A DNA stretch of 64,000 nucleotides, taken from NCBI GenBank assembly GCA_000092065.1, contig CP000581.1; one strand, 5' to 3'. How positions within the stretch are numbered: the first letter of the stretch is position 1; each line of letters opens with the position of its first letter. The DNA comes from Ostreococcus lucimarinus (lineage: Eukaryota). The notes below the pieces were generated by a model. The model searched no databases, was not told the origin of the DNA, and was given only the letters and a program-made list of their open reading frames with translations. A program made the position numbers and the translations under genes. This document shows, in pieces, positions 16,660-58,797 of this stretch.

Positions 16660-17823
16660 ATGGCGCTCGCCGCGCGCCGCGCGCCGCCGCGCGCGCTGGT
16701 CGCGCCTCGCGCGCGCGCGCGCCTCGCGCGCGCGAGCGTCCGCGCCTCGCGCGCGCCCGCGGTCGACGACGACGCGCGGTTCGGGCGGCGTCGCGACGCG
16801 CTCGCGCTCGGTGACGTCGTGGAGGTGCGTCTCGTGCGTCGACCGGGCGCGAGCGCGGGCGACGCGGCGACGGCGGTGGGAGAGATTTCAGATTTCGTGA
16901 CGAACTCGAGCTTTCACGCGGACGGGATCAAGGTGCGGCTGAAGAGCGGGGAGATTGGGCGGGTGACGCGCGCGCGCTGGGACGACGAAGACGACGAAGA
17001 CGAAGTCCACGAGGACGAGGACGAGTACGAGGACGAGGACGAAGACGAGGACGAGGACGCGCGTCAAACGTCATCGAGCGCGGCGACGACGTCGAACGGT
17101 GGTGAACGCGCGGGTGAGGCGCTTCGGACGGCGTACGTGTCCGGCGTCTCAAAGTCGTCGTCGGCGGCGGACGTCAAAGCGTTGGCTTCGGGATTACCGG
17201 GCGTCAAGAACGTGCGCGTGCCCGTGCGAGGAGGGTCGCACATGGGGTACATGTTCATCGAGTGCGCGGACGGCGATGGCATGCGAGGCGTGATCGAGGC
17301 TCTGCACGGACGGGAATTCCACGGCAAGGCGCTGGTCGCCGAGCGCGCGAAGGAGGATCCGAAACCGAAAAAGAAAAAGCCCAAGACCGATGCAGCGAGC
17401 GCGAAACTGAAAACGAAGAAGACAAAAACGCGCGCTGAGCTCGAGGCCGAAGCCGCGGCGCGCCGCATCCTCGACGCTCGCGCGCAAATGGAAGCCGACG
17501 CGCTCCTGGAACTCGAGCGCGCCAAACGCCGGCGAGAGCGCGAGCTCGAGGTCCGCGAGCGCGAGCTCGAGGTTCAGCGCGCGCTCGATCTCGACCGCGA
17601 ACGTCGCGCAAGAAACCTTCTCGAGCGGCGCGCCGCCGCCGCTCAGGCTCGCGCCGAGCGCGCTCGAGCCGCCGCCGACGCTCGCGAATCCGCGCTCTCC
17701 GCCGCGCGCGCGCTCGGCGACGTCCGCATCGATCCGTCCTGGCGTCCTCGCGCCGACGCTCTTCGCGAAACTCTCGCCCGTTTACGCGTCGACGCCGACG
17801 ATGGTCGACCCTCGCGCTCTTAG
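16660..17823 (+). CDS. RNA-binding protein with Arg/Ala-rich presequence, barrel-like segment, acidic DE tract, RRM-like domain, Lys-rich and coiled-coil tail
   Basis: RRM-like YVSGVSKSSSAADVKALASGLPGVKNVRVPVRGGSHMGYMFIECADGDGMRGVIEALHGREFHGKALVAE. Poly-acidic DEDDEDEVHEDEDEYEDEDEDEDED. KKKKPK motif. ELEV repeats. Real ATG. Confidence 0.6.
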   Translation: MALAARRAPPRALVAPRARARLARASVRASRAPAVDDDARFGRRRDALALGDVVEVRLVRRPGASAGDAATAVGEISDFVTNSSFHADGIKVRLKSGEIGRVTRARWDDEDDEDEVHEDEDEYEDEDEDEDEDARQTSSSAATTSNGGERAGEALRTAYVSGVSKSSSAADVKALASGLPGVKNVRVPVRGGSHMGYMFIECADGDGMRGVIEALHGREFHGKALVAERAKEDPKPKKKKPKTDAASAKLKTKKTKTRAELEAEAAARRILDARAQMEADALLELERAKRRRERELEVRERELEVQRALDLDRERRARNLLERRAAAAQARAERARAAADARESALSAARALGDVRIDPSWRPRADALRETLARLRVDADDGRPSRS

Positions 17824-18238
17824 CGCCGTAGCCCTTCGTTGTAGCTTGTAGCGGTTGTAGCGGCGAGCCTTTCGCCTCGAGAGATTTCGCCAAATCATGG
17901 TCGAGCCGCGTTTTTCGCCAAGTGATGGTAAAAACGGACCTCGCGGGACGGGGTCGCCTCCCGCGCGCTCGCATCCGCCTTTTCACGACGCACGCGAGAG
18001 AAGAGTACGTCACGACCGCCGACGCGCGCGCGCGAACGCAATCGAACCATTCGCGTCGCCTCGCGCGCGCTCGTGAAGCGACGCGTGGCGCGACCGACGC
18101 ACCGACCGCCGCGACGCACCGGGCCAAACCCCGAGCGCGCCGCGATCGCGCATCGCGCGTGAAACCTCTCGCGCGAGCGCGAGCGCGCGAACAAGAGACT
18201 GACGATCGACGCGCGCGTTTCGTTTTCATCATTCACAG

Positions 18239-19541
18239 TGTCTCATCGCAAGTTTGAACGTACGTGGCGACGCGAGGCGCGGCACGATGATCTCGGGACG
18301 CGATCGCGCAAAGCCCTAGCGGCGAAGGTGACCTCGCGCGACTCGACTCGGTGATGCGACGCGAACGATGACTGACGAAGACGTGTTGTGTGTGAAATAT
18401 AGACCCGCGTTACGGTAACCTCGGTTTCTTGCCGAAGAAGCGCTCGAAGCGCAGCCGGGGTAAGGTCAAGTCGTTCCCGAAGGATGACGCGAGCAAGCCG
18501 CCGCACCTCACCGCGTTCATGGGCTTCAAGGCTGGCATGACGCACATCGTTCGCGATGTCGATAAGCCCGGCTCGAAGATGCACAAGAAGGAAACGTGCG
18601 AATCGGTGACGATCATCGAGTGCCCGGAACTCATCGTGGTTGGCCTCGTCGGTTACGTGCGCACGCCGAAGGGCTTGCGCGGGAAGAAGACGGTGTGGGC
18701 CGAACACTTGAACGATGAAGTCCGCCGTCGATTCTACAAGAACTGGTTCAAGTCCAAGAAGAAGGCGTTCACCAAGTACACGAAGAACTACACCAACGGT
18801 TCCATCGACAAGGACTTGGACGAGCTCAAGAAGTCTTGCGACGTCATTCGCGTCATCGCGCACACGCAAGTGCGCAAGGTTTCAGGCTTGAAGCAAAAGA
18901 AGGCTCACATTATGGAGATTCAAGTTAACGGTGGTGACGTCGCCGCCAAGGTTGACTTTGGCTACGCTCTCTTCGAAAAGGCTGTGCCGGTCGACACCGT
19001 GTTCCAGCAAGACGAAATGATTGATCTCATCGGCGTCACGAAGGGTAAGGGTTACGAAGGCGTCGTCACCCGTTGGGGCGTCACCCGACTTCCGCGCAAG
19101 ACCCACAGAGGTTTGCGTAAGGTTGGTTGCATCGGTGCGTGGCACCCGTCGCGTGTTTCCTACACGGTTGCCCGTGCGGGTCAACACGGTTACCATCACC
19201 GTACGGAAATCAACAAGAAGGTGTACAAGATCGGCAAGGCTGGTCAAGACAGCTTCGGTGCGAGTACGTTCCACGACCCGACGGAGAAGGAAATCACCCC
19301 GATGGGTGGCTTCGCGCACTACGGTATCGTCAAGCACGACTACGTCATGATCAAGGGTGGTGTCGTCGGCCCGCGCAAGCGCTTGATCACGATGCGTCAA
19401 TCTCTCTTCAAGCAAACGCGTCGCGTCGCCACGGAGAAGATTACGCTCAAGTTCATCGACACCTCGTCCAAGTTCGGTCACGGTCGCTTCCAAACCTCCG
19501 AAGAGAAGGCGAAGGTTTTCGGTACGACGAAGCAAGCGTAA
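18239..19541 (+). CDS. RPL3: 60S ribosomal protein L3 (uL3). Spliced: micro-exon about 18239..18259 (TG TCT CAT CGC AAG TTT GAA C) plus main exon about 18402..19541. Initiator ATG not contiguous (see findings)
   Basis: Main ORF matches RPL3 almost end-to-end ([30 protein letters not shown]...[32 protein letters not shown]...). The track M is a TTG. Upstream, SHRKFE is encoded before a GTACGT donor, and the ATATAG acceptor restores [16 protein letters not shown], matching FSAPRHGSLGFLPRKR. Confidence 0.9.
18260..18402 (+). other. inferred intron of RPL3 (about 142 nt, GTACGT...ATATAG)
   Basis: Joins the conserved SHRKFE micro-exon to the main exon in frame. Confidence 0.7.
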
Positions 19542-19686
19542 GCTTCTTTGTCGTTCGCAATCGCTGGTTAGTCACGTTTGTTTTAATGTCGAAGACGCAT
19601 TTTTAGCTAAACATAATAAACTCCGAGGTCCCGGTCGGCGTCTCTGCGAACGCGCTTAAGTCGTTACGGTGGCTGATTCTCGAAGA

Positions 19687-20079
19687 TTACAAAATCTTGT
19701 TCAAGGTCTTAGTGACGGTCTCTTTCAACGCCGCGCGGTCGGGCTTGTAGAGGAGGTTCTGGTACACGAAGAAACCCGAGAAGAGGATCCCGACGAGTTC
19801 GAGAAGGTCCGGGATGAGCGGCAACGAGTCCACCGCGCGAAGCGTACCGTTCGCCGCGACGAGACCGACGAACCCGTACACACTGAGCGTCACGATCGCC
19901 GGCTTTTCATCCGACTCCTCCCACTTCTCCGAGAGCGTGTCCGTGACTTCTCTCAACTTGTCTTGCAAGTCGTCCGCCGCGGCTCTGCGCGCCACGAATC
20001 GCGCGGGTCGCGCCGCGCGAGACTTCATCGTCATTCGCGTCGTCGTCGGCGCCTTCGCCGTGATTCTCGTCGCAAGCAT
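19687..20079 (-). CDS. CURT1: CURT1/CAAD-domain thylakoid membrane protein (CURVATURE THYLAKOID 1 family) with N-terminal transit peptide
   Basis: LSEKWEESDEKPAIVTLSVYGFVGLVAANGTLRAVDSLPLIPDLLELVGILFSGFFVYQNLLYKPDRAAL aligns with Arabidopsis CURT1A LKEKWDGLENKSTVLIYGGGAIVAVWLSSIVVGAINSVPLLPKVMELVGLGYTGWFVYRYLLFKSSRKEL. Two TM helices. Ala/Arg/Thr-rich presequence. Real ATG at 20079. Confidence 0.8.
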   Translation of the reverse strand: MLATRITAKAPTTTRMTMKSRAARPARFVARRAAADDLQDKLREVTDTLSEKWEESDEKPAIVTLSVYGFVGLVAANGTLRAVDSLPLIPDLLELVGILFSGFFVYQNLLYKPDRAALKETVTKTLNKIL

Positions 20080-20663
20080 CGTCGTCGGCTTTATCTATCC
20101 TTCGTTCGCCATCGCGCGCGCATCGTCAGTCGTTTTTCGCCTCCATCCGCGACCGCGTCTCGCCGCAATCCAATCAATCAATCTTTCGCCCGCGCCAACG
20201 TCACGCCCGATCGATCGTCCGCATCGCGTCCACCCGCGTCGTTTTTCGCGCGTTCGCTCGCGTCGTTCGCGCGCGTCTCGCCGCGATCGTTCGCGCGTCG
20301 CGCGCGCGCGTCGCTTCTTCGTCGTCGCTCGACGCACCGCGTGGATCAGTGGCGCTCGCGCGTGTCGTCGCCATCGTATCTTTCCCGTCCGCGCGGGTCT
20401 CGCGGGGGTCGTTCGCGAGTCACGAACGGCGAAACCGGGGACTCCTCGAATTATACACACGGAACACACGCGTCGTCCGCGGTCGGTCGACCCATCGCGC
20501 GCCGCGCACCGCGACGCGCGCGCGCGCGCGATCCGCGCGCGGACGAACGGGTCGTCGCGATCGCGATCGCGCGCGCGCCGGCGTCGCGACGCGATCGCGG
20601 ACGCGCGCGGCGAAGAAGCGCGATCGATCGGCGCGCGGTGGTTAGCGAGGCGGCCGGGAGGCG

Positions 20664-30588: not shown

Positions 30589-30984
30589 ATGACGGCGACG
30601 AAGGAAAAGGCCATCATCAAGGCGGCGGACATGCCGGACGTGCGTGTCGGCGATCGCGACGCGCGCCGACGCGCCGACGCGCCGACGCGCCGACGCGACA
30701 AAGTCAACGAGAACGATGACGACGACGAACGCGACGACTGACGACGCGAACGCGCGCAGGACATCCAAGACGACGCGGTGACGGTGTCCATGGAGGCGAT
30801 GGAAAAGTTCAACGTCGAGAAGGACATCGCGGCGCACGTGAAGAAGGAATTCGATAGAAAGCACGGCCCGACGTGGCACTGCGTCGTGGGGAGAAATTTT
30901 GGAAGTTACGTCACGCACGAGAGCGGACACTTCATCTATTACTACATAGCCAACGTCGCGTTTTTGTTGTTTAAAGCGGGCTAG
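30589..30984 (+). CDS. DYNLL: dynein light chain LC8 (DYNLL). Two exons: join(30589..30639,30760..30984)
   Basis: Exon 2 ([74 protein letters not shown]) is near-identical to LC8. Its frame has an upstream stop and no ATG. Exon 1 (ATG 30589, [17 protein letters not shown], donor GTGCGT at 30640) reproduces the LC8 N-terminus MCDRKAVIKNADMSEE. Confidence 0.85.
30640..30759 (+). other. inferred intron of LC8 (120 nt, GTGCGT...CAG) containing a (GCGCCGAC)4 octamer repeat
   Basis: Unspliced read-through hits TGA. Splicing gives a full-length LC8. Confidence 0.75.
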
Positions 30985-47279: not shown

Positions 47280-50200
47280 TTACTTGTCCTCGTTCGACAT
47301 GTCGAGGAGCTGCGTGAAATAATCCACCGCGCTGGCTGCGGTTTTCTTCGTTTCGTTGGTGTTTGTCTTGCGCGTGATGACGCTGCGCAGGGATGAAATG
47401 GTCATCGATTTGACGACGTCTTCGGCTTCGACGTCTTGAACCGAAATACCCATGGACTCGGCGTATTTGGATTTGAGATCGTCGAGTTCGCCGGCCACTT
47501 TTTTGGACTCTTCGAGAACCTTGAGTTCTTCATCGCTCAGGTTCACAAAGTCGCGGAGACGCTTTTTGGCCTCGTCGAGGGAAACGCGGAGGCGCTTGAT
47601 CTCCACGGCGTACTCATCGCGTTCGGTTGCCGTCTGCTCAAACGAACGTTCGAGCGCAAGTCTGTCGGCCTCGAGCTGCTTTTCTCGATCGGAGACGCTA
47701 AGCCTGAGGCTCTTTTCGGCTTTAGACTTTTCTTCCGCGACGATTTTGAGCGCTTTTTCGCGACTCGCTTTGAGCGCCGCGTCCTTCGCCGCGATGGTGT
47801 CTCTCAGTCGTGCCTCGTACGATTCGCGAAGCTTGGCGATATCGATCTCGCTTCGCTCGCGAAGTTCCTTGAGACTCGCTTGAGTTTTGGCTATCTCTTC
47901 GGCGTAAGCGTCAGCGTCGCCACGTCTGCCGGTCGAGGTCGCAACTTCCTTCTCAACAATCTTTTCAACCTCAACAATCTTCTCGACGACCTTCTCGACT
48001 ATTTGCGGCGGTCCGCCTGTTTGCCCGGCGCGCTTTTCCGCGTCGCGCACAGCCCGTTGAAGCGTTTCAACTTCTTGACGGAAGTCTACGACTAGCTTAT
48101 CAAACTGCGCGTTGAATTTGGCTTCAATTTCCAGATCACGATCGTTGAGCATGTTTTCAAAGTTGGCAATTTTGGCCTTGAGTTTATCATTCGCCTTCTT
48201 CGCCGTCGCACGAAGCGCCGCTTCAGATTTTGAGCGTTCGGCGGCGGCGATGGCCAATTGATCGCGCAACGCCTTCTTCGCTGTGGTTTCCGCCTCTCTC
48301 AGAGCCGCGATATATTCACGCTGTGCCGCGAGCTTGGCACTCTCGGTGAGCTTCTTTGCCGCCGCGATTTCAGTGCGCAAAGTCTTTTCCATACGGTCGC
48401 GCTCCGCCTTCGCAGCTTCCATCGCGGACGCCAACTTCTGGTTCGCAATCTTCTCAGAGTTTGCGAGCTGATTTTCGAGTGTAGAAACTTTGGATTCCAA
48501 AGCCTTAAGCTTTGATTCGGATTCGATGCGCATTGCTTTCTCTACCGCCTCGATTTCAGCCTTTTGTGCCGTCTTAAATTCGCTCAGTTTCTTCACGGCG
48601 GCTTCAAGATCACGCTCGAGCGTCGCAACCTTGCTAGGCGATTGAGCGGGCTTGCTCTTCTGTATGACTGACTCCGTCGGTGTAGACGCGTTCGTCTCCT
48701 TCATCGAGCGATTCGACGCGCCGAAGAGACGTTCAAAGAGCGAAGGCGCGGAAGTCTTCGCCGCTTCTTCAGCCGCCAACGCCGCTTCTTCAGCCGCCAA
48801 CGCCGCATCTTCCTTCGCTTTCGTAGCTTCTTCCTTCGCTGCAAGCAACTGATCGCGCAAAGTAACCATTTCACTTTGCGCCGCACGAAGCTTACGCTCG
48901 GCGTCTTCGCGCGCGGCTCGTTCAGCTGCAACCTTGCCTTTGTTGAATTCAAAGAGAGGGCGCTGAACGGAGGTTTCCGATACCACCTTCGATGACGAAG
49001 ATTGCTTCTTTGCGACATCGAGTTCATCAGTGAGTGCACCAACGCGTTGCTCATAAAAGGCGATCTTCTCTGCGAGAGTTACTTGCTCGGATTTCAATCT
49101 TCGCTCGAAGTCTTCCTTCATCAAAAGCATCGAACGGGACCATTTCGCCTCCGCTTCGGCAAACTCGGCCTGAACACTCGCAAGTCGATACTGGACATTC
49201 TCCATTTTCTTCGCCTGTTCCGCATAATCCCTGTGCGCACGTCTGATTTGCTTCTCAAGTTCGCGTTCGCGTGACTTGAGTTGCTTGTTCATTAGCTGCG
49301 CCGAGTCTCGTACGCGTTCTTTGAAGTCTTCGCGCAACGCGGCGAGAAGAACTTCAACCTCTCGCGTGTGCTCCTTGCTTTCTTGAATCTTTTGGTTGAA
49401 TTCTAAAGTAGCATCAGCCATTGTTTGAGCGACAGCGCGAACGATCTCGTCATTGTGCTTTTCCTTCATCGCGTTCATTTCAGAAATTCTAGAACCCAAC
49501 ATCGCCTGACTATTTTGATACTTGACCAAAATATCTGCTCGTTCGGATTCAAGACTGCGCACATTCGCTTCGTCGGCCTGAACACTCGCAAGTCGATACT
49601 GGACATTCTCCATTTTCTTCGCCTGTTCCGCATAATCCCTGTGCGCACGTCTGATTTGCTTCTCAAGTTCGCGTTCGCGTGACTTGAGTTGCTTGTTCAT
49701 TAGCTGCGCCGAGTCTCGCACGCGTTCTTTGAAGTCTTCGCGCAACGCGGCGAGAAGAACTTCAACCTCTCGCGTGTGCTCCTTGCTTTCTTGAATCTTT
49801 TGGTTGAATTCTAAAGTAGCATCAGCCGTTGTTTGAGCGACAGCGCGAACGATCTCGTCATTGTGCTTTTCCTTCATCGCGTTCATTTCAGAAATTCTAG
49901 AACCCAACATCGCCTGACTATTTTGATACTTGACCAAAATATCTGCTCGTTCGGATTCAAGACTGCGCACATTCGCTTCGTACGACTTTGCTTGATCTTT
50001 CCAAGCAACGGAGTCGAATTGCCATGCGTCACGTTCTTGCTCCAACTTGGCCATTTTACGAAGCATTTGTGCGACGGCAGCAGTCATCTCGTCATCCTCA
50101 TCAAACGACGCCGAGGCGTTTTCGGTAAGTCGCGCCAAATCGAGCGCATACTTTGTCTCTGCGTCGGCAACCGCACGTTCTCGCTCTTCGTTCAGGCGCG

Positions 50201-53200
50201 CCACGGTTACCGCGAGCTGTTCTTGAGCATCAGCTTGGAGCTTGGCGATGGCTGCGACGGTATCATCGCCGCTTTTAAGCTTGGACTCAAGCTCGGAGAT
50301 GCGTTGCTTGTACTCTTTGACAGTGGTTTCACTCTCGGCGGCAAAAGTAGAAGATGCGTTACTGACGGCGTCCTTCAACTCTGCTTTGAGTGCCGCGATT
50401 TCATTCGCTGAAGCTGAACTTTTTTGTTCAAACTCCAATGTCAGACGCGATATTTCCTCACGAAGCTTGACTTCGCGCTCTTGCGCATCGCGTGCTTCAG
50501 TCTCTGCAGCTGATAACAGCACAGTTTGATCTTTGATCTGAGCATTTACAGCATCAAGGGACGCGTCCTGTCCCTGGGAAGCGCCGATGATGCTAGCAAA
50601 AATTCCACCTCGATCGCCTTTCGCCTTGTCCAAAACAGCCTTGTATTTCTCTTCAGCCTTTTGCATGCCCTTGCGAGCTTTTTCTAGTTCCTTTTCTAGT
50701 CGTCGCTCGGAATCCAGCTTCTCAGACTGTAGTCTTGTCGTGACCGATAGCACATCTTGATCACGCTCAGCGCGGACGGCTTTGATTTGCGCTTCCAAGT
50801 CGAAGATATGCTTTTCCACGTCCGGGCTGCTCCTCTTAGCTTGCGTAGCGAACTCCGCTTCAAGTTTCTCAAGCTTTTCTTGAAGCGCGTCGCGCTGCTT
50901 CTTGAGACGCTTGACTTCGCCAGTGCTTCCCTCGAACTTGTACGTGACAGATTGGGGAAGGGTGTACTTAACTACACTCTTCTCACGCTTTTGCTGTTGT
51001 TTGCGTTTAAACGCATCCAACTCCTTGCGAGCCTCAGTGACTTCAAGCCTGAGCTCTGCTTCCGTCTCCGTCGCCGTGCGCTTGAGAGTCTTATTGAGCT
51101 TCTTTATCGTCGATTCGTAACCTTCGGAAACCTCTTCTAGTTGAAGTTCCAGTCGCTTGACTGTCGCCTCGTACTCCGCGGCGATTTCATCAGCCTGTAT
51201 CTTCGCAGACCTCTCAACTTCTTCGAGTTTTGCTTTCCACAAGTCCTCAGCTTGCTTTACCTTTGTAGTTTCATCGCTCGCGAGAGAAGTTTTCATGGCG
51301 TTTTGCAGGGTCTCGATCTCGAGAGTCTGAGCCGTGATCAGCGCCTCTTTTTCTTCTTGGAAGAGCTTTGACTCCTGCGATACGCGGTCATCCGCTTCCG
51401 ACTTGACCAAAGCAACCAACGCTACTCGATCAGCCTCCGCTGACGCCTGAATTTCAGCGACGGCTTGGATAAGCTCTCGTTCGGCGCTTTCGTTGGCATC
51501 GGCGAGTTGCTTCTTCAGAGCTGCAACTTGGTCATCAATCGTAGCGGTCTCTGTGTCCGTTTTCGACGTCGATTTCATGTTCGCGATAGTTTGCTCGTAG
51601 AGCCGCTTGGACTTTTGCATCTCGTCAAGTTGGGATTCAAGGCGTGTGACTTGCGCTTGAAGCGCGTCGCGCTCCTTCTCTAGCGATGCATCTACCTTGT
51701 TGCCAGTAAACTTATATGTCACTGTTTGAGGCAGCGTGTACTTGATGCCACCCTTACTTTTTTGCTTGAGGTCTTCGAGGTCCTTTTTCGTCGATTCGAC
51801 TCGTTTTCTAAGTTCACTTTCGCTAGACTTAGATGCTGCGAGCTGCGCTTTAATTTTCTTCATCTCATCGTCGTCACTCGACACCCACGCAGTAGAAGAT
51901 TGAAGCGCATCAATTTTACCTTGATACTCTTGCTTCAACCGATCAATCTGTGCATCCTTGGCTGCTTCGACCTCACGAATCTTCTGTTCCCAGAAAATAG
52001 ATGATTGAGCCTCGGCAGTGGCTACCTCAGCCGTGAACTCAACCATAGCGTCTGCGGACTGTTTTATCGCTTCGTTTCGCATCATCGCATACAGCGCGCG
52101 GCGCTCGCCAGCGCTTGAACGAGACGAAGCGTCGCGTTGCGCCAGCTCGGAAGACGCAAAGGCCTGAATACTAGCGACGGCCTCGACGAGATGCTCCTCG
52201 GCGATGGCTTTTTGCTCTTGCAAACGCCACGACTGCTCAGACAGCTGCTTCTTGAGATCCAGGATCATGGCATCCTTCGCCGCTGACTCGTCGCTCCCAG
52301 CGGTCGTCGCCGCGGGCACGGCGGGCGCCGCGCGTGCAGACGCCTTGAGTGACTCAATCTTCGCGTCATACTCTCGCTTGGTCTTCTGCATTTCCGTCAG
52401 CTGCGACTCGAGCGCGCTGATCTTGGCCTGCTGAGCCTTCATCAGCTTGTCGTCCGTGGAACCGCCCTCGAATGTGTACTTGATAAACTGCGGAAGTGTG
52501 TACTTCACACCGTTCTTCGACGCAGTCTTGAGCGACTGAAGTTCGGCTTTCGCCGCGTCGACTTGACCTCGGAGTTCGAGTTCGATCGACGAGCGCTTGG
52601 AGAGCTGCGCCTGCAGGTCGGACACGACGCTCGAGAGACCATCACTACCAGACGCCTTGGACATTGATGCCTTGAGCTCCTCGAGTTCACGCAGCGATGC
52701 GTCGAGCTGCGCCTTCTCGGCCGCCGCCGCCGCTTGCAGCTTGGCATTATCAGCGAGGATCGTCGCGACAGCCGCCTCAACTTGCTCTTCGGCATCGTTT
52801 TCGGCATCCTGCAGCTTCTTGTTGAGGGCGTCGATTTCGGCGCTTCTGTCAGAAACACCGGTCGTAGTGCTCGCCTTACTGGCCGCCCGGACTCGTTCGA
52901 TCTCTTCGTTGTGTGCCTTCTTCAGAGCAACCACGCGCTGCTCAAACTGAATCTGCGCGTCACGAATGGCGTCGTTCACTTGAGCGCTCGTGTCCACAGG
53001 TGAACCGGACGACGCGCGCAATGACGCCTCCAGCTGTTCGTTCTCAGCCTTGAGCTCAGCGACGGCCTCGACGAGCTGCTCCTCGGCGATGGCTTTTTGC
53101 TCTTGCAAACGCCACGACTGCTCAGACAGCTGCTTCTTGAGATCCAGGATCATGGCATCCTTCGCCGCTGACTCGTCGCTCCCAGCGGTCGTCGCCGCGG

Positions 53201-56200
53201 GCACGGCGGGCGCCGCGCGTGCAGACGCCTTGAGTGACTCAATCTTCGCGTCATACTCTCGCTTGGTCTTCTGCATTTCCGTCAGCTGCGACTCGAGCGC
53301 GCTGATCTTGGCCTGCTGAGCCTTCATCAGCTTGTCGTCCGTGGAACCGCCCTCGAATGTGTACTTGATAAACTGCGGAAGTGTGTACTTCACACCGTTC
53401 TTCGACGCAGTCTTGAGCGACTGAAGTTCGGCTTTCGCCGCGTCGACTTGACCTCGGAGTTCGAGTTCGATCGACGAGCGCTTGGAGAGCTGCGCCTGCA
53501 GGTCGGACACGACGCTCGAGAGACCATCACTACCAGACGCCTTGGACATTGATGCCTTGAGCTCCTCGAGTTCACGCAGCGATGCGTCGAGCTGCGCCTT
53601 CTCGGCCGCCGCCGCCGCTTGCAGCTTGGCATTATCAGCGAGGATCGTCGCGACAGCCGCCTCAACTTGCTCTTCGGCATCGTTTTCGGCATCCTGCAGC
53701 TTCTTGTTGAGGGCGTCGATTTCGGCGCTTCTGTCAGAAACACCGGTCGTAGTGCTCGCCTTACTGGCCGCCCGGACTCGTTCGATCTCTTCGTTGTGTG
53801 CCTTCTTCAGAGCAACCACGCGCTGCTCAAACTGAATCTGCGCGTCACGAATGGCGTCGTTCACTTGAGCGCTCGTGTCCACAGGTGAACCGGACGACGC
53901 GCGCAATGACGCCTCCAGCTGTTCGTTCTCAGCCTTGAGCTCAGCGACGGCCTCGACGAGCTGCTCCTCGGCGATGGCTTTTTGCTCTTGCAAACGCCAC
54001 GACTGCTCAGACAGCTGCTTCTTGAGATCCAGGATCATGGCATCCTTCGCCGCTGACTCGTCGCTCCCAGCGGTCGTCGCCGCGGGCACGGCGGGCGCCG
54101 CGCGTGCAGACGCCTTGAGTGACTCAATCTTCGCGTCATACTCTCGCTTGGTCTTCTGCATTTCCGTCAGCTGCGACTCGAGCGCGCTGATCTTGGCCTC
54201 TAGCGCGTTAACATTCGCAGTGTTTTCCGGTGTTTTTCTAGACGTGTCTTCGAATTTGTAAGTAATGCTTTCCGGCGAAGTGTACTTGACGGTCTGCTGT
54301 GCGGATGCTATCTGATTTCGGAGATCACGCTCAACTTCGGTTCGCTCGCGCAGCTGCCGCTGGAGCTCCGTAATCTCCGCCGACACGTCCACGCCCGGTG
54401 TGTCTGATTTGATTAAAGCCTTCAGCTCTTCGAGCTCGCACAGGGACGCGTCGAGCTGCGACTTTGCAGCGTCAACCGCGGCTTGCAGCCGGTCTTTATC
54501 AGCAACGATTTCCGCTACCGCGCGCTTTACTGCCTCTTCGCGTTCTTTTTGCGCATCTTCCAACTGCTTATTGAGCGCGGCGACCTGCGCGTCCACATCT
54601 TTGCTACTACTCGAGCTGGATGAGGCTTGTAAATCCGCAATCTTTTGTTCGTACGACTGCCTGAGCTGCTTCAGCTGTGCATCCTTCATGAGCTCAACGT
54701 CCTTGATCTTTTTCTCCCAGTATGCAGGAGATTCCACAGCGTGGGTGCTGGCCTTACTGGCCGCCCGGACTCGTTCGATCTCTTCGTTGTGCGCCTTCTT
54801 CAGAGCAACCACGCGCTGCTCAAACTGAATCTGCGCGTCACGAATGGCGTCGTTCAGCTGAACTCTTGCTTCGGCAGTTGAGCTGGACGATGCGCGCAAT
54901 GAAGCCTCCAGCTGTTCGTTCTCAGCCTTGAGCTCAGCGACGGCCTCGACGAGCTGCTCCTCGGCAATTGCCATGTTCTCAGACAGCTGCTTCTTGAGAT
55001 CTATGATTTCTTCGTTAGCGTCAAACTGGTTCAATCTCTTAACCGCCTCGGCGCGCATCATTTTGTACATCGCGTTACGTTCTCCAGTTGTGGATTTAAG
55101 AGCTGACTCGAGTTGTACCTTGCTAGCTTCAGCAAGCGACTGGATTTCAGCAACCGCTCGAACGAGCATATCATCATACATCTCCTTGAGCGTAGTTACA
55201 TCCTGTTTTACCGCGTCCTGCTCTGAAGCAAGATTCGATTTAACGTTGATGCGCTCGGCTTCAAACTGTGCGAGAAGCTGAGCTTTTGACGCTTCACTCT
55301 CGTTCAACTTGGAGATAGCGTCACGTGCGCGATCCTCCGCTTGCGTGACTCTTCTATCCGACTCTCTACGTGCGTCTTCTAATGCTGTCGCGTGAGCAGC
55401 GGCTGTAGTCTGTATCGCCATCTGATGCGCCTGTTCGAGGGCTTTTATTTTGGCTGGTGCGTCATCCTTCGTCGCGCTCCTTTTAAGGCGCTCTAGCTCT
55501 TCGTTGTGCGCCTTCTTCAGAGCAACCACACGCTGCTCAAACTGGATCTGCGCGTCACGAATGGCGTCGTTCATCTTCTTGCTACTCGAAACTTCGCTTA
55601 TGGCAACTTCACTTTGAAGCCGCGTCAAAGTTCGCTCGCTCGCTTTGCGCATCTCAGAGTCGAACATCGACTTGAGCGCACGACGCTCGCCCGCAACTCC
55701 ACGCACAGCTTCGTCACGAACTGCGTCAACGTCCACGTCGTTTCGCATTTCGACCGGAGATACCGCGACCTGAGATTTCTTTGAAACCTTGACTCGTTCG
55801 ATCTCTTCGTTGTGCGCCTTCTTCAGAGCAACCACGCGCTGCTCAAAGTTAAGCTGCTCCTCACGGAGTGCCGCGTTAAATTGATCGACGCTCAGCGCGC
55901 TCTGGCTCGGCTTTGAGGCGTTACTCGCCTTGACTCGTTCGATCTCTTCGTTGTGCGCCTTCTTCAGAGCAACCACGCGCTGCTCAAAGTTAAGCTGCTC
56001 CTCACGGAGTGCCGCGTTAAATTGATCGACGCTCAGCGCGCTCTGGCTCGGCTTTGAGGCGTTACTCGCCTTGACTCGTTCGATCTCTTCGTTGTGCGCC
56101 TTCTTCAGAGCAACCACGCGCTGCTCAAATTTAAGCTGCTCCTCACGGAGTGCCGCGTTGAATTGATCGACGCTCAGCGCGCTCTGGCTCGGCTTTGAGG

Positions 56201-58307
56201 CGTTACTCGCCTTGACTCGTTCGATCTCTTCGCTGTGCGCCTTCTTCAGAGCAACCACGCGCTGTTCAAACTGGATCTGCGCGTCACGAATGGCATCGTT
56301 CGCTTGAGCGCTTACATCGACAACCGATGTGACTGGATCGGCGCGCTCAACTGGAGCGCCGCGCTCGATGTTGCGTCCAGGACTGGCCTTGTTCATCTCC
56401 GAATCAAGAAGCGCCTTTAGCGCTCGTCGCTCCCCAGCGGCACCGCGCATCGCGCTGTCGTACTTGGCCACGAGAGAGCTAATTTCAACTTCAGCCTCGG
56501 CACGTATTTCGGCAATCTTCGAAAGGAACTCGTCCTGAGTCGTCGAGTCACTGTCTTGAATCAGTCCCGCCACCGGCTCCCGTACTTTTGAGAGCGTGGC
56601 GGCAAAATCGGCCCGCTCTTTCACAATTCTCTCGCTATAAGACGCACAAATCGCTTTCAGTTGATCTTCGAGGAATGACAGGCGTTCTCCAGAGGTGACC
56701 TTCGCAAGAGCCAATTCTGACCGAAGCGTCGCCAGGTGCATGCGCTGCAGGTCACGTGATGCGCGATACTTGCTTGCTTCACTTCTTCCAAGTTCGCGTT
56801 CAGCGCGAATCAAGCCACGCGCGGCTCTAATTTCGATTTCATGACGCGTCGCCATAGATTTGTTCACCTCTTTCGCTTCGTGCAAAGCATCCTCAGCAAT
56901 ATTCAGCGCTTTCTCAAGCCTCTCGATGCTGCCCTTCAGCGTAACCTCTTGCGCGTGGAAGGCAGCTTCGTTTGCTTTGATGGCGGTTTCGTGCTCCTCT
57001 TTCATCTTTACGAGCACACGTTGAAGTTCTTCGGTGCTTTGTCCTCCCGCGCCGGCGCTTGAAAGCGAATCGATTTGCACATCCTTCATGTGGCGCTTGA
57101 AGTCGTCGTTCAGAGTCTTGAGGTTATCATTCTTCTCCTTCTTCATGGCGCCGAGCTTTTCGATTTCGGTTTCAAACTCCAGAATCATTGACTGCCGCAG
57201 TACTTCTAAGCGTCGCACCGCGCTACTATCGCTTTCCAAAGGCTGAGCAAGACTGGGCAAACGTTCCAATTTGGATCGCACTTTTTGCACGTCAACGCCA
57301 GAGCGAGAGATACCGAAGCCGATTGCCGCAGCGGCAACTGCAGCCGCAGACGCGATACCAGCTACCGCAGCGGTTTTTGCAACGACTGGCGGAAGCGCAT
57401 TATTGTGACGCAAAGTCATCGAGGTCGCATTTACCGCTGGTAAATTTTGAGCGAACGGGGCGACTGTTGCCGTTTTCACCACATTTTTTGGACGCTCAGC
57501 CACGATCGAGGTCGTCACCTGCGGCACAGTCGGCGACGCCGCGCGCCGATCGGCTGAAAAACTGTGTTTACCTCCGATAAGAGCCACGGCCGTCGCGATA
57601 CCACCGTAAATGAGCTTGGTCTCGGTATCGAATCTCTCAGTCGCGCGCATCATCGTCGTCGCGAGGGATGTCTGTTGTATTTTTTTCCGCACGATGGACG
57701 TCGTTTCTACCGTCTTCTTCACAATACTCGTCGTGGCCTTCATCCCAAGCGCCACGACTTCGTTCGCATCGCTCGATCGTTCGCATCGTTCGCATCGTTC
57801 GCATCGTTCGCATCGCTCGCATCCCTCGCCATCCTCATCGTCGTGCTCGTGCTCGTGCGATTCTTCGTACTCTTCGTACGCCTCGTCCGACATCCACGAG
57901 AACGACGCGAACCCGGGCGCGCTGTCGAACCCAGCCATACCAACTCTCCCCGCCCCCGGTCGCCGAACTTCACGCTCTTCGTCCTCGTCTTCCGCGCCCC
58001 CCCCGACCTCGAGCTCGAGCACTATCTCGTCCACGAGCTTGTATCCGCGAAAACTCGCCGTCCCGACGCCGTTTTCAAACATCGCGCGTCCGATCTCTCC
58101 CGGCTCGTCCCCTCGTCCCGCGCACGTCACCACGCGCCCGACTCGCATCGACGCCCTCCCGCGCGCGCTCGCCCGCGCGTCGCTCGCGCTCGCCCCTCGC
58201 GTCGCGTCGCCGCGCCGCTTCCCTCCCTCTCGCGTCGTCTCCCGCCGCCCCAGCGCGAGCGCGCCGCGCGCGCGCGTCGACATCACCCCGCGATCGACGA
58301 TCGCCAT
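47280..58307 (-). CDS. giant coiled-coil protein (3675 aa) with internal tandem repeats and possible N-terminal hydrophobic anchor. Start uncertain
   Basis: Uninterrupted 11 kb ORF; heptad-rich E/K/A/L/Q composition throughout. Recurring blocks QFEQRVVALKKAHNEEIERV and VKYTLPQ..YKFEG. N-terminal hydrophobic segments (LIYGGIATAVALIGG, AGIASAAAVAAAAIGFGI). CERCERCERCER tract. Real ATG at 58307, but downstream Mets (e.g. MFENG) are also possible. Confidence 0.7.
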   Translation of the reverse strand: MAIVDRGVMSTRARGALALGRRETTREGGKRRGDATRGASASDARASARGRASMRVGRVVTCAGRGDEPGEIGRAMFENGVGTASFRGYKLVDEIVLELEVGGGAEDEDEEREVRRPGAGRVGMAGFDSAPGFASFSWMSDEAYEEYEESHEHEHDDEDGEGCERCERCERCERCERSSDANEVVALGMKATTSIVKKTVETTSIVRKKIQQTSLATTMMRATERFDTETKLIYGGIATAVALIGGKHSFSADRRAASPTVPQVTTSIVAERPKNVVKTATVAPFAQNLPAVNATSMTLRHNNALPPVVAKTAAVAGIASAAAVAAAAIGFGISRSGVDVQKVRSKLERLPSLAQPLESDSSAVRRLEVLRQSMILEFETEIEKLGAMKKEKNDNLKTLNDDFKRHMKDVQIDSLSSAGAGGQSTEELQRVLVKMKEEHETAIKANEAAFHAQEVTLKGSIERLEKALNIAEDALHEAKEVNKSMATRHEIEIRAARGLIRAERELGRSEASKYRASRDLQRMHLATLRSELALAKVTSGERLSFLEDQLKAICASYSERIVKERADFAATLSKVREPVAGLIQDSDSTTQDEFLSKIAEIRAEAEVEISSLVAKYDSAMRGAAGERRALKALLDSEMNKASPGRNIERGAPVERADPVTSVVDVSAQANDAIRDAQIQFEQRVVALKKAHSEEIERVKASNASKPSQSALSVDQFNAALREEQLKFEQRVVALKKAHNEEIERVKASNASKPSQSALSVDQFNAALREEQLNFEQRVVALKKAHNEEIERVKASNASKPSQSALSVDQFNAALREEQLNFEQRVVALKKAHNEEIERVKVSKKSQVAVSPVEMRNDVDVDAVRDEAVRGVAGERRALKSMFDSEMRKASERTLTRLQSEVAISEVSSSKKMNDAIRDAQIQFEQRVVALKKAHNEELERLKRSATKDDAPAKIKALEQAHQMAIQTTAAAHATALEDARRESDRRVTQAEDRARDAISKLNESEASKAQLLAQFEAERINVKSNLASEQDAVKQDVTTLKEMYDDMLVRAVAEIQSLAEASKVQLESALKSTTGERNAMYKMMRAEAVKRLNQFDANEEIIDLKKQLSENMAIAEEQLVEAVAELKAENEQLEASLRASSSSTAEARVQLNDAIRDAQIQFEQRVVALKKAHNEEIERVRAASKASTHAVESPAYWEKKIKDVELMKDAQLKQLRQSYEQKIADLQASSSSSSSKDVDAQVAALNKQLEDAQKEREEAVKRAVAEIVADKDRLQAAVDAAKSQLDASLCELEELKALIKSDTPGVDVSAEITELQRQLRERTEVERDLRNQIASAQQTVKYTSPESITYKFEDTSRKTPENTANVNALEAKISALESQLTEMQKTKREYDAKIESLKASARAAPAVPAATTAGSDESAAKDAMILDLKKQLSEQSWRLQEQKAIAEEQLVEAVAELKAENEQLEASLRASSGSPVDTSAQVNDAIRDAQIQFEQRVVALKKAHNEEIERVRAASKASTTTGVSDRSAEIDALNKKLQDAENDAEEQVEAAVATILADNAKLQAAAAAEKAQLDASLRELEELKASMSKASGSDGLSSVVSDLQAQLSKRSSIELELRGQVDAAKAELQSLKTASKNGVKYTLPQFIKYTFEGGSTDDKLMKAQQAKISALESQLTEMQKTKREYDAKIESLKASARAAPAVPAATTAGSDESAAKDAMILDLKKQLSEQSWRLQEQKAIAEEQLVEAVAELKAENEQLEASLRASSGSPVDTSAQVNDAIRDAQIQFEQRVVALKKAHNEEIERVRAASKASTTTGVSDRSAEIDALNKKLQDAENDAEEQVEAAVATILADNAKLQAAAAAEKAQLDASLRELEELKASMSKASGSDGLSSVVSDLQAQLSKRSSIELELRGQVDAAKAELQSLKTASKNGVKYTLPQFIKYTFEGGSTDDKLMKAQQAKISALESQLTEMQKTKREYDAKIESLKASARAAPAVPAATTAGSDESAAKDAMILDLKKQLSEQSWRLQEQKAIAEEHLVEAVASIQAFASSELAQRDASSRSSAGERRALYAMMRNEAIKQSADAMVEFTAEVATAEAQSSIFWEQKIREVEAAKDAQIDRLKQEYQGKIDALQSSTAWVSSDDDEMKKIKAQLAASKSSESELRKRVESTKKDLEDLKQKSKGGIKYTLPQTVTYKFTGNKVDASLEKERDALQAQVTRLESQLDEMQKSKRLYEQTIANMKSTSKTDTETATIDDQVAALKKQLADANESAERELIQAVAEIQASAEADRVALVALVKSEADDRVSQESKLFQEEKEALITAQTLEIETLQNAMKTSLASDETTKVKQAEDLWKAKLEEVERSAKIQADEIAAEYEATVKRLELQLEEVSEGYESTIKKLNKTLKRTATETEAELRLEVTEARKELDAFKRKQQQKREKSVVKYTLPQSVTYKFEGSTGEVKRLKKQRDALQEKLEKLEAEFATQAKRSSPDVEKHIFDLEAQIKAVRAERDQDVLSVTTRLQSEKLDSERRLEKELEKARKGMQKAEEKYKAVLDKAKGDRGGIFASIIGASQGQDASLDAVNAQIKDQTVLLSAAETEARDAQEREVKLREEISRLTLEFEQKSSASANEIAALKAELKDAVSNASSTFAAESETTVKEYKQRISELESKLKSGDDTVAAIAKLQADAQEQLAVTVARLNEERERAVADAETKYALDLARLTENASASFDEDDEMTAAVAQMLRKMAKLEQERDAWQFDSVAWKDQAKSYEANVRSLESERADILVKYQNSQAMLGSRISEMNAMKEKHNDEIVRAVAQTTADATLEFNQKIQESKEHTREVEVLLAALREDFKERVRDSAQLMNKQLKSRERELEKQIRRAHRDYAEQAKKMENVQYRLASVQADEANVRSLESERADILVKYQNSQAMLGSRISEMNAMKEKHNDEIVRAVAQTMADATLEFNQKIQESKEHTREVEVLLAALREDFKERVRDSAQLMNKQLKSRERELEKQIRRAHRDYAEQAKKMENVQYRLASVQAEFAEAEAKWSRSMLLMKEDFERRLKSEQVTLAEKIAFYEQRVGALTDELDVAKKQSSSSKVVSETSVQRPLFEFNKGKVAAERAAREDAERKLRAAQSEMVTLRDQLLAAKEEATKAKEDAALAAEEAALAAEEAAKTSAPSLFERLFGASNRSMKETNASTPTESVIQKSKPAQSPSKVATLERDLEAAVKKLSEFKTAQKAEIEAVEKAMRIESESKLKALESKVSTLENQLANSEKIANQKLASAMEAAKAERDRMEKTLRTEIAAAKKLTESAKLAAQREYIAALREAETTAKKALRDQLAIAAAERSKSEAALRATAKKANDKLKAKIANFENMLNDRDLEIEAKFNAQFDKLVVDFRQEVETLQRAVRDAEKRAGQTGGPPQIVEKVVEKIVEVEKIVEKEVATSTGRRGDADAYAEEIAKTQASLKELRERSEIDIAKLRESYEARLRDTIAAKDAALKASREKALKIVAEEKSKAEKSLRLSVSDREKQLEADRLALERSFEQTATERDEYAVEIKRLRVSLDEAKKRLRDFVNLSDEELKVLEESKKVAGELDDLKSKYAESMGISVQDVEAEDVVKSMTISSLRSVITRKTNTNETKKTAASAVDYFTQLLDMSNEDK
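49167..49980. repeat. 408-bp tandem duplication (2 copies) inside the giant coiled-coil gene
   Basis: Copies starting at about 49167 and 49575 read near-identically (..ggcctgaacactcgcaagtcgatactggacattctccattttcttcgcctgttccgcataatccctgtgcgc..). Duplicated six-frame ORFs 49002/49425/49833 share sequence. Confidence 0.8.
52176..54198. repeat. 885-bp tandem repeat, 2 full copies plus about 250-bp partial third, essentially identical, inside the giant coiled-coil gene
   Basis: Identical six-frame ORFs offset by exactly 885 nt (52204/53089/53974; 52505/53390; 52597/53482; 52734/53619). Direct reading confirms identity from cgacggcctcgacgag onward. Confidence 0.9.
55788..56350. repeat. 141-bp tandem repeat (about 4 copies), each encoding a 47-aa unit FEQRVVALKKAHNEEIERVKASNASKPSQSALSVDQFNAALREEQL(K/N)
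   Basis: cttgactcgttcgatctcttcgttgtgcgccttcttcagagcaaccacgcgctgctcaaa recurs at about 55788, 55929, 56070 and 56211. Confidence 0.85.
57761..57825. repeat. 9-bp repeat (CGTTCGCAT)x5-6, encoding (CER)n on the minus strand in the giant gene N-terminal region
   Basis: Direct reading: cgttcgcatcgttcgcatcgttcgcatcgttcgcatcgctcgcatc. Confidence 0.85.
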
Positions 58308-58797
58308 CCTCGCGCGCGCGCGCCCGGCGTCTCCCCGTATCGCGCGCGTCCGACGACGCCACTAATCCAAAACCCGACCGATCGCGTCCCGCGCGCGCGC
58401 GTCCTCGTCGCGTCGCGTCGCTCCGATCGCCCGCGTCGCTCGAATCGCGCTCGCGCGCGTCGGCGTCGACGCGCGTCGATCACTGCGCCGCGCGGCGGCG
58501 CCGCGCGCGACGTCCGCGGTCGATCCGCGTCGCGCGGTCGGTCGGTCGGTCGCCGTTTTATCGCGGCGCGCGCGCGCGCGTCACATGGCGTTCGAGTCGG
58601 TACACTACGACGTCCGCGCGCGTCGTCGTCGCCCCTCGCGCGACGGGTCCGATCGCGACGTCGTCGTCGTCGTCGACGCGCGATCGAGGGTCGACGTCGG
58701 CGCGCGATCGACGCCGCGCGTTTCGCGTCGCGCGCGGGCGCGGCGATCGCGCGCCGACGCGCGATAGGGTCGCGGCGGCGCGAGACGACGACGCGCG

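Follow-up and report, generated by a model that had tools for sequence, protein, structure and literature searches.

The 64,000-nucleotide (nt) stretch of Ostreococcus lucimarinus contig CP000581.1 (assembly GCA_000092065.1) analyzed here, referred to as the window, carries on its plus strand a gene for the ribosomal protein uL3 (RPL3), which raises the question of where its start codon lies. The genome upstream of the conserved residues SHRKFE reads ...ttttcatcattcacAG, and positions 18238–18258 read GTG TCT CAT CGC AAG TTT GAA (V-SHRKFE). No in-frame genomic ATG is present upstream, and the contiguous frame meets a stop inside the first intron. The closest upstream ATGs, at 17897 and 17925, are both out of frame, and each is followed by GT. 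A first-pass annotation, made from the letters alone, had placed SHRKFE on a 21-nt micro-exon at 18239–18259 directly before a GTACGT donor (18260), had noted GTG instead of ATG at an AG acceptor, and had proposed a start codon split as A|TG, with the A supplied by the donor gagaagA|GTACGT at 18004|18005. Our analysis finds the micro-exon, the GTG beginning at G18238 and the donor at A18004 exact to the base, and four transcript contigs carry the spliced ATG. The proposed intron of about 233 nt also exists, although its length is 234 nt.

The split start codon and its transcripts

The gene model comprises the following features.

17979–18004, plus strand: exon 0, comprising a short 5' untranslated region (UTR) and the start codon's A; transcript contig L001 fixes its 3' end exactly, and its 5' end is putative.
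18005–18238, plus strand: intron 1, 234 nt, phase 1 within codon 1; GTACGT...GACTGACG...CAG, missing from transcript contigs L001–L004 and containing no ATG.
18197–18204, plus strand: GACTGACG as the branch-point motif of intron 1; its branch A sits 36 nt ahead of the 3' splice site.
18239–18259, plus strand: micro-exon TGTCTCATCGCAAGTTTGAAC (TG TCT CAT CGC AAG TTT GAA C), 21 nt, supported by sequence and complementary DNA (cDNA).
18260–18402, plus strand: intron 2, 143 nt, phase 1 (GAA C|AC); GTACGT...TAG, missing from L001–L004.
18370–18377, plus strand: branch-point motif GACTGACG of intron 2, with the branch A 27 nt before the 3' splice site.
18403–19541, plus strand: main coding exon, which opens with the final two bases of codon 8 and closes with TAA (19539–19541), supported by translation, Pfam and identity to the deposited protein P0002.
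19542–19598, plus strand: minimum extent of the 3' UTR; L001 (1229 nt) equals the spliced model through 19598.

Translation of the joined segments (A18004, 18239–18259 and 18403–19541) yields an open coding sequence (CDS) of 1161 nt and a product of 386 amino acids with the N-terminus MSHRKFEHPRYGN. The micro-exon contributes the last two bases of AUG, the SHRKFE codons and the first base of the His8 codon. Pfam PF00297 (Ribosomal_L3) matches the product end to end (E = 9.7e-177, residues 1–366 against profile positions 1–369), and plant and algal RPL3 proteins are 70–93% identical to it and share the eukaryotic N-terminus MSHRKFE. Furthermore, the product is 100% identical over its full 386 amino acids to O. 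lucimarinus P0002 (= ABO93677.1/XP_001415385.1), whose record is entitled 'Ribosomal protein L3, component of cytosolic 80S ribosome and 60S large subunit'. The deposited protein begins with MSHRKFE, and only the split codon yields such an N-terminus, so the gene structure is already in the public annotation. Taken as a whole, the gene is almost certainly the cytosolic uL3 (RPL3) of O. lucimarinus or of a near-identical strain, with an initiator codon assembled by splicing.

An exact-sequence look-up of P0002 in public assemblies returned four intronless contigs, L001–L004 (1215–1229 nt), one in each of the samples JGI 3300021892, 3300026398 and 3300026513 and Logan SRR7962479. In all four, the 1161-nt CDS is uninterrupted, both introns are gone, and the sequence differs from the spliced model by 0–1 mismatch. 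The 5' end of L001 reads CGCGAGAGAAGA|TGTCTCAT, which fuses window positions 17993–18004 to 18239 (the start across this first junction is also given as CGCGAGAGAAGA|TGTCTCATCGC), and it continues as CGCGAGAGAAGA|TGTCTCATCGCAAGTTTGAAC|ACCCGCG, in which the second junction fuses 18259 to 18403. Where the genome reads ...GAAGA|GTACGT...CACAG|TGTCT, the cDNA reads ...GAAGATGTCT. The placement of the first junction is unambiguous, because the cDNA has A where the genome has G18238, and TG where the genome has GT at 18005–18006. The cDNA reading ...A|TGTCTCATCGCAAG, which the first-pass annotation had singled out as the decisive check, is thus seen in a public transcript assembly. Intron 1 interrupts the initiator codon after its first nucleotide and is a start-codon-disrupting intron (phase 1, codon 1). 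In a separate degenerate-pattern scan of metagenome contigs for spliced RPL3 5' ends, none of the 114 loci recovered belonged to Ostreococcus, and the best reached 75% nucleotide identity, so the scan added no further 5' end for O. lucimarinus.

The mature mRNA reads ...GAGAAGAUGUCUCAU..., with AUG and not GUG. Within the cDNA-supported leader no AUG comes before the spliced one, and homologues begin with MSHRKFE; both observations point indirectly to this AUG as the probable codon of initiation. The contrary reading, that intron 1 does not exist and that a contiguous transcript is translated from a GUG at 18238–18240 directly before SHRKFE, draws on the genome itself, which reads GTG TCT CAT at 18238–18246 without a contiguous ATG. 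However, all four transcript contigs read AGATGTCTCAT and not CAGTGTCTCAT, as do their counterparts in a second species described below; none of these cDNAs has GUG at the start position, and the cDNAs of a fifth clade also carry AUG. In addition, 18005–18238 has a perfect donor, branch point and acceptor, and G18238 is the last base of a CAG acceptor conserved in four species. A GUG start is already contradicted for the assembled major isoform, and we regard it as vanishingly improbable. The non-AUG initiation that the first-pass annotation had kept as its alternative is not needed, since the mature mRNA carries AUG.

The methionine might also come from another upstream exon, either through a distant donor ending in A or through an N-terminal extension ending in NTG, the donor at 18004 being a coincidence. 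Two potential donors, ATG|GTCGAG at 17897 and ATG|GTAAAA at 17925, lend this some color. Against it, the first 12 nt of L001 equal 17993–18004 exactly, upstream of A18004 the frame contains stops but no ATG, and the upstream gene ends at 17823, leaving only 181 nt. We accordingly give another upstream exon next to no weight. The two ATG|GT donors were themselves rejected as candidates, as joining either to CAG|TG, the sole acceptor available, leaves SHRKFE out of frame.

Splice signals and conservation of the split

Both introns have a GTACGT 5' end, the 8-mer GACTGACG and a YAG 3' end (CAG in intron 1 and TAG in intron 2). The published consensus for O. lucimarinus comprises the 5' splice site GTGCGTG and the branch point GACTGACG (Irimia & Roy 2008, PMC2483917), and that for Mamiellophyceae comprises AG|GTGCGT and NCTGAC (Verhelst et al. 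2013, PMC3879977). The two introns are like other introns of Ostreococcus and the Mamiellophyceae in their GT[AG]CGT donor, GACTGACG and YAG, and their lengths of 143 and 234 nt are ordinary for the group. With these signals in place and both introns removed from the RNA, they are canonical U2-type GT-AG introns of Ostreococcus. One position departs from the Micromonas donor consensus AG|GTGCGT (PMC3879977), which has G at exon position –1: in four Ostreococcus species this base is A, because the start codon forces it, and the non-consensus A is paired in all four with a perfect GT[AG]CGT donor.

Chance is an unlikely source of this arrangement. The window contains 13 copies of the branch-point 8-mer GACTGACG, where 4.7 would be expected, and none of 100 shuffles attains that number; GTACGT alone is not enriched there (26 against 21 expected). 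The composite pattern A|GT[AG]CGT...ACTGAC...YAG|TG has a single occurrence in the window, at 18004, and is present in 1% of 200 Markov-simulated 64-kb windows with both strands counted. An Rfam search of the introns gave two chance-level matches only (20–22 bits against gathering scores of 70–75) and no hosted small nucleolar or other non-coding RNA.

The first-pass annotation had also called for a comparison with related algae, and this comparison shows that the split is conserved. The arrangement A|GT[AG]CGT...CAG|TG followed by a 21-nt micro-exon is found in genomic contigs of three other Ostreococcus lineages, making four lineages in total.

O. tauri GCA_002158475.1 (contig L132): ...GCGACAA|GTGCGT, intron 1 of 246 nt, CAG|TGTCTCACCGCAAGTTTGAAC|GTGCGT, intron 2 of 169 nt.
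Contig L006: ...CTCAAGA|GTACGT, intron 1 of 217 nt, CAG|TGTCTCACCGTAAATTCGAAC, intron 2 of 229 nt.
Contig L009: ...GACAAA|GTGCGT, intron 1 of 242 nt, CAG|TGTCGCACCGTAAATTCGAAC, intron 2 of 194 nt.

The micro-exon is always 21 nt long, and the differences among the four lineages fall only at synonymous third positions, in five of the six codons. Donors of the orthologues are GTGCGT or GTACGT, and in them the branch A precedes the 3' splice site by 31–39 nt. The introns of the different species do not align except at the splice signals and AAAGCCCTA. Microsatellites, (CGAAG)n, (GAAAC)n, (GGGATG)n and (GCGAT)n, occupy positions 2560–2700 of L009 within intron 1, showing that the interior of the intron evolves freely.

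Annotation and transcripts agree with the split in these relatives. In O. tauri GCA_002158475.1, the first base of the deposited gene range is the lone A in front of GTGCGT (position 2001 of L132). In the second species, genomic L009 reads ...GACAAA|GTGCGT...GCGCAG|TGTCGCAC, and the cDNAs L012–L014 read GACAAA|TGTCGCAC. For the third species, the protein predicted from spliced L006 is identical to the MMETSP transcript protein P0121. In addition, eight intronless contigs of a fifth Ostreococcus clade (L133–L140; protein P0133) read ...GCGAGCGAG ATG TCT CAT.

These contigs also bear on whether the intronless sequences might be artefacts, such as assembly chimeras or a processed pseudogene, and hence no proof of splicing. 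Three facts give such an explanation some room: the RNA nature of the samples is read from the contigs themselves, the cluster member P0005 looks chimeric, and L012 and L014 carry adapter sequence. However, L001–L004 come from four samples, agree with the model within 0–1 mismatch and end near mRNA boundaries; 11 further contigs from two other clades have the same intronless junction; the MMETSP culture transcriptome gives the same N-terminus; and the introns are present in every genomic contig from the same taxa. An artefactual origin is therefore very unlikely, and splicing of the A to the TG is the reading that we retain.

The first ~110 residues of P0005 (ENA, a 2172-nt contig) are identical to a more distant relative (P0015/P0021, 76–78% identical to the query), whereas its remainder is identical to O. 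lucimarinus; P0005 is therefore probably a chimera from the assembly of a metagenome or metatranscriptome. L012 and L014, both from Logan, begin at positions 1–19 with AGATGTGTATAAGAGACAG, which we take to be the Nextera mosaic-end adapter, untrimmed in the public assembly. Because these two contigs begin with adapter, their 5' ends are not transcription start sites (TSSs).

The leader, intron 2 and the limits of the split

In each of the four Ostreococcus genomic loci, a pyrimidine motif (CCTTTTC, CTCTTTC or GTCTTTCC) precedes the exon-0 donor by 22–30 nt, at the following positions.

Window, 17977–17985: CCTTTTCAC, containing CCTTTTC.
L132: ~1976–1983.
L006: ~2553–2560.
L009: ~2511–2518.

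In the fifth clade, each of the cDNAs L133–L140 opens with 0–5 variable G-rich bases, probably non-templated, followed by CTCTT, which lies 22 nt upstream of the ATG. The motif looks like an initiator of the terminal oligopyrimidine (TOP)/TCT type at the TSS, which would place the TSS of the window gene ~25 nt upstream of the start, near CTTTTC at ~17979. No ATG occurs in the 45 nt before A18004.

Taken together with the junctions, exon 0 carries the 5' UTR, the Kozak bases –3 to –1 and just the A of AUG; removal of the 234-nt intron 1 joins this A to UG to give AUG, and the 143-nt intron 2 is removed as well. Scanning ribosomes would then initiate in the normal manner at the spliced AUG, as the first AUG of the mRNA. 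A transcript retaining intron 1 would have no in-frame AUG for full-length uL3, and thus only the spliced mRNA could make the full-length protein.

This dependence invites the proposal that the split AUG is a conserved regulatory gate, at which regulated retention of intron 1 could switch uL3 output. Control would then be exerted, for example, by feedback from free uL3 or by diel or nutrient signals, and the intronic AAAGCCCTA and the pyrimidine initiator would belong to a ribosomal-protein regulon of the Mamiellales. In yeast, RPL30, RPS14 and RPL22 act on their own introns, which provides an analogy for uL3 feedback. We consider a gate of this kind unlikely.

The element in question is located in intron 2, at the following positions.

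18310–18318, plus strand: AAAGCCCTA, telo-box-like putative element in intron 2 of the window gene; counterparts at L132 ~2318–2326, L006 ~2906–2914 and L009 ~2864–2879.

AAAGCCCTA is the sole 9-mer common to intron 2 of all four Ostreococcus RPL3 orthologues, and AAGCCCTA occurs once in the 64-kb window. The plant telo-box AAACCCTA occurs near ribosomal-protein genes, and AAAGCCCTA resembles it. In Micromonas-like loci, AAACCCTAAAA (minus strand) and AAAACCCTC are found in a putative 5'-UTR intron. On these grounds AAAGCCCTA may be a cis element of ribosomal-protein genes; a crude open reading frame (ORF) survey of the window, made without a Pfam scan, showed no evident further ribosomal-protein gene.

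In the three loci compared beyond Ostreococcus, the start codon is contiguous. The locus L015 belongs to a lower-GC Mamiellales relative with 84% protein identity, probably Bathycoccus, and reads AACAAT ATG TCT CAC AGA AAG TTT GAA C|GTGAGT, with intron 2 present and no split. The position of intron 2 is common to the window, O. tauri, L006, L009 and L015. In the Micromonas-like loci L017 and L141, the CDS is free of introns and the genomic ATG is contiguous. L015, L017 and L141 all share with the window the synteny of a DUF2196/RRM gene, RPL3 and a convergent CAAD gene.

The Micromonas-like loci may nevertheless retain a trace of an intron at the start. In L017 (2480–3003) and L141 (970–1503), the ATG directly follows a branch point, a polypyrimidine tract and CAG (...GCTGAC...polypyrimidine...CCCAG), and both loci have a strongly conserved upstream segment ending in AAAG|GTGAGC, with an exon 0 that is near-identical between them. 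This arrangement likely represents a putative 5'-UTR intron of ~460–470 nt with a CAG|ATG end, and the spliced leader would read ...GACACCAAAG|ATGTCT. Look-ups of P0137 and P0139 for Micromonas RPL3 cDNA returned genomic contigs only. The comparison suggests that the A|TG split of Ostreococcus may be a one-base shift of an older, start-adjacent 5' intron.

Several points have to be set against this account. L001–L004 are taken to be of RNA origin because both introns are missing and their ends resemble those of an mRNA, and the evidence consists of assembled contigs, so splicing efficiency and minor intron-retaining isoforms lie outside it. The putative TSS is placed by the cDNA contig ends of another clade; if it lay upstream of 17925, the upstream ATGs at 17897 and 17925 would fall within the 5' UTR. 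Likewise, the putative Micromonas 5'-UTR intron, and hence the one-base-shift scenario, is drawn from genomic sequence.

Other features of the window were noted in passing. The stop of RPL3 (19541) and that of the convergent CAAD-domain gene (ORF 19687–20079, minus strand) are 145 nt apart (19542–19687), and several transcript contigs (L133–L138) join intronless RPL3 to the CAAD gene, which implies overlapping 3' UTRs. A canonical-looking intron at 20337–20095 (minus strand; GTGCGT...GACTGACG...TAG) has its 3' end 15 nt upstream of the ATG of the CAAD gene. The segment 30589–30990 (plus strand) looks, by its sequence alone, like a dynein light chain gene of the LC8 type and has a canonical intron at 30640–30759 (GTGCGT...GACTGACG...CAG). 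Positions 47283–58361 (minus strand) form a single open frame of 3693 codons with a strong AT-skew and internal repeats, seen as identical antisense ORFs at 52668–53000 and 53553–53885, and probably encode a giant repetitive protein.

Relation to known start-codon introns

Introns that disrupt the start codon are comparatively uncommon, above all in plants; a sharp excess of phase-0 introns is found directly after the start codon, where ribosomal proteins are strongly over-represented (Nielsen & Wernersson 2006, PMC1626468). In Yarrowia lipolytica, the 5' splice site directly follows the A, T or G of the start codon in 42 introns, which are linked to high splicing efficiency and high expression (PMC13309789). 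The RPL3 intron resembles the start-codon-disrupting introns of both studies in that the AUG exists only after splicing and in that its host is a short, conserved gene with high expression. It is distinct from them in its occurrence in a prasinophyte green alga, in its Ostreococcus splice motifs and in the 21-nt micro-exon directly behind the intron. The 'start codon introns' of ribosomal-protein genes, as described in a passage of PMC1626468 quoting Yoshihama et al. 2002, are phase-0 introns between codons 1 and 2. In both cases, a ribosomal protein gene has its first intron right against the start codon, whereas the RPL3 intron is positioned two bases earlier (A|TG as compared with ATG|). 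The RPL3 split thus belongs to a known, rare intron class and is found in the expected kind of gene. Our literature search for a split RPL3 start codon in Ostreococcus returned general papers, on introns at start codons and on the splice motifs of Ostreococcus, with no specific mention of it.

The feature is real, conserved in the genus, ordinary in mechanism and already annotated in public gene models. It opens no new question, as standard splicing would be followed by standard AUG initiation. Its value lies in being a clean, transcript-verified case of a start codon that exists only post-splicing, in which gene finders that rely on a contiguous ATG miss the true N-terminus; many metagenomic RPL3 gene calls start at a false TTG or ATG or read through intron 2 (P0006, P0011–P0014, P0122 and P0132). 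Furthermore, it extends by one instance, conserved across the genus, the tendency of ribosomal-protein genes to retain introns close against the start codon, even where the genome has very few introns.

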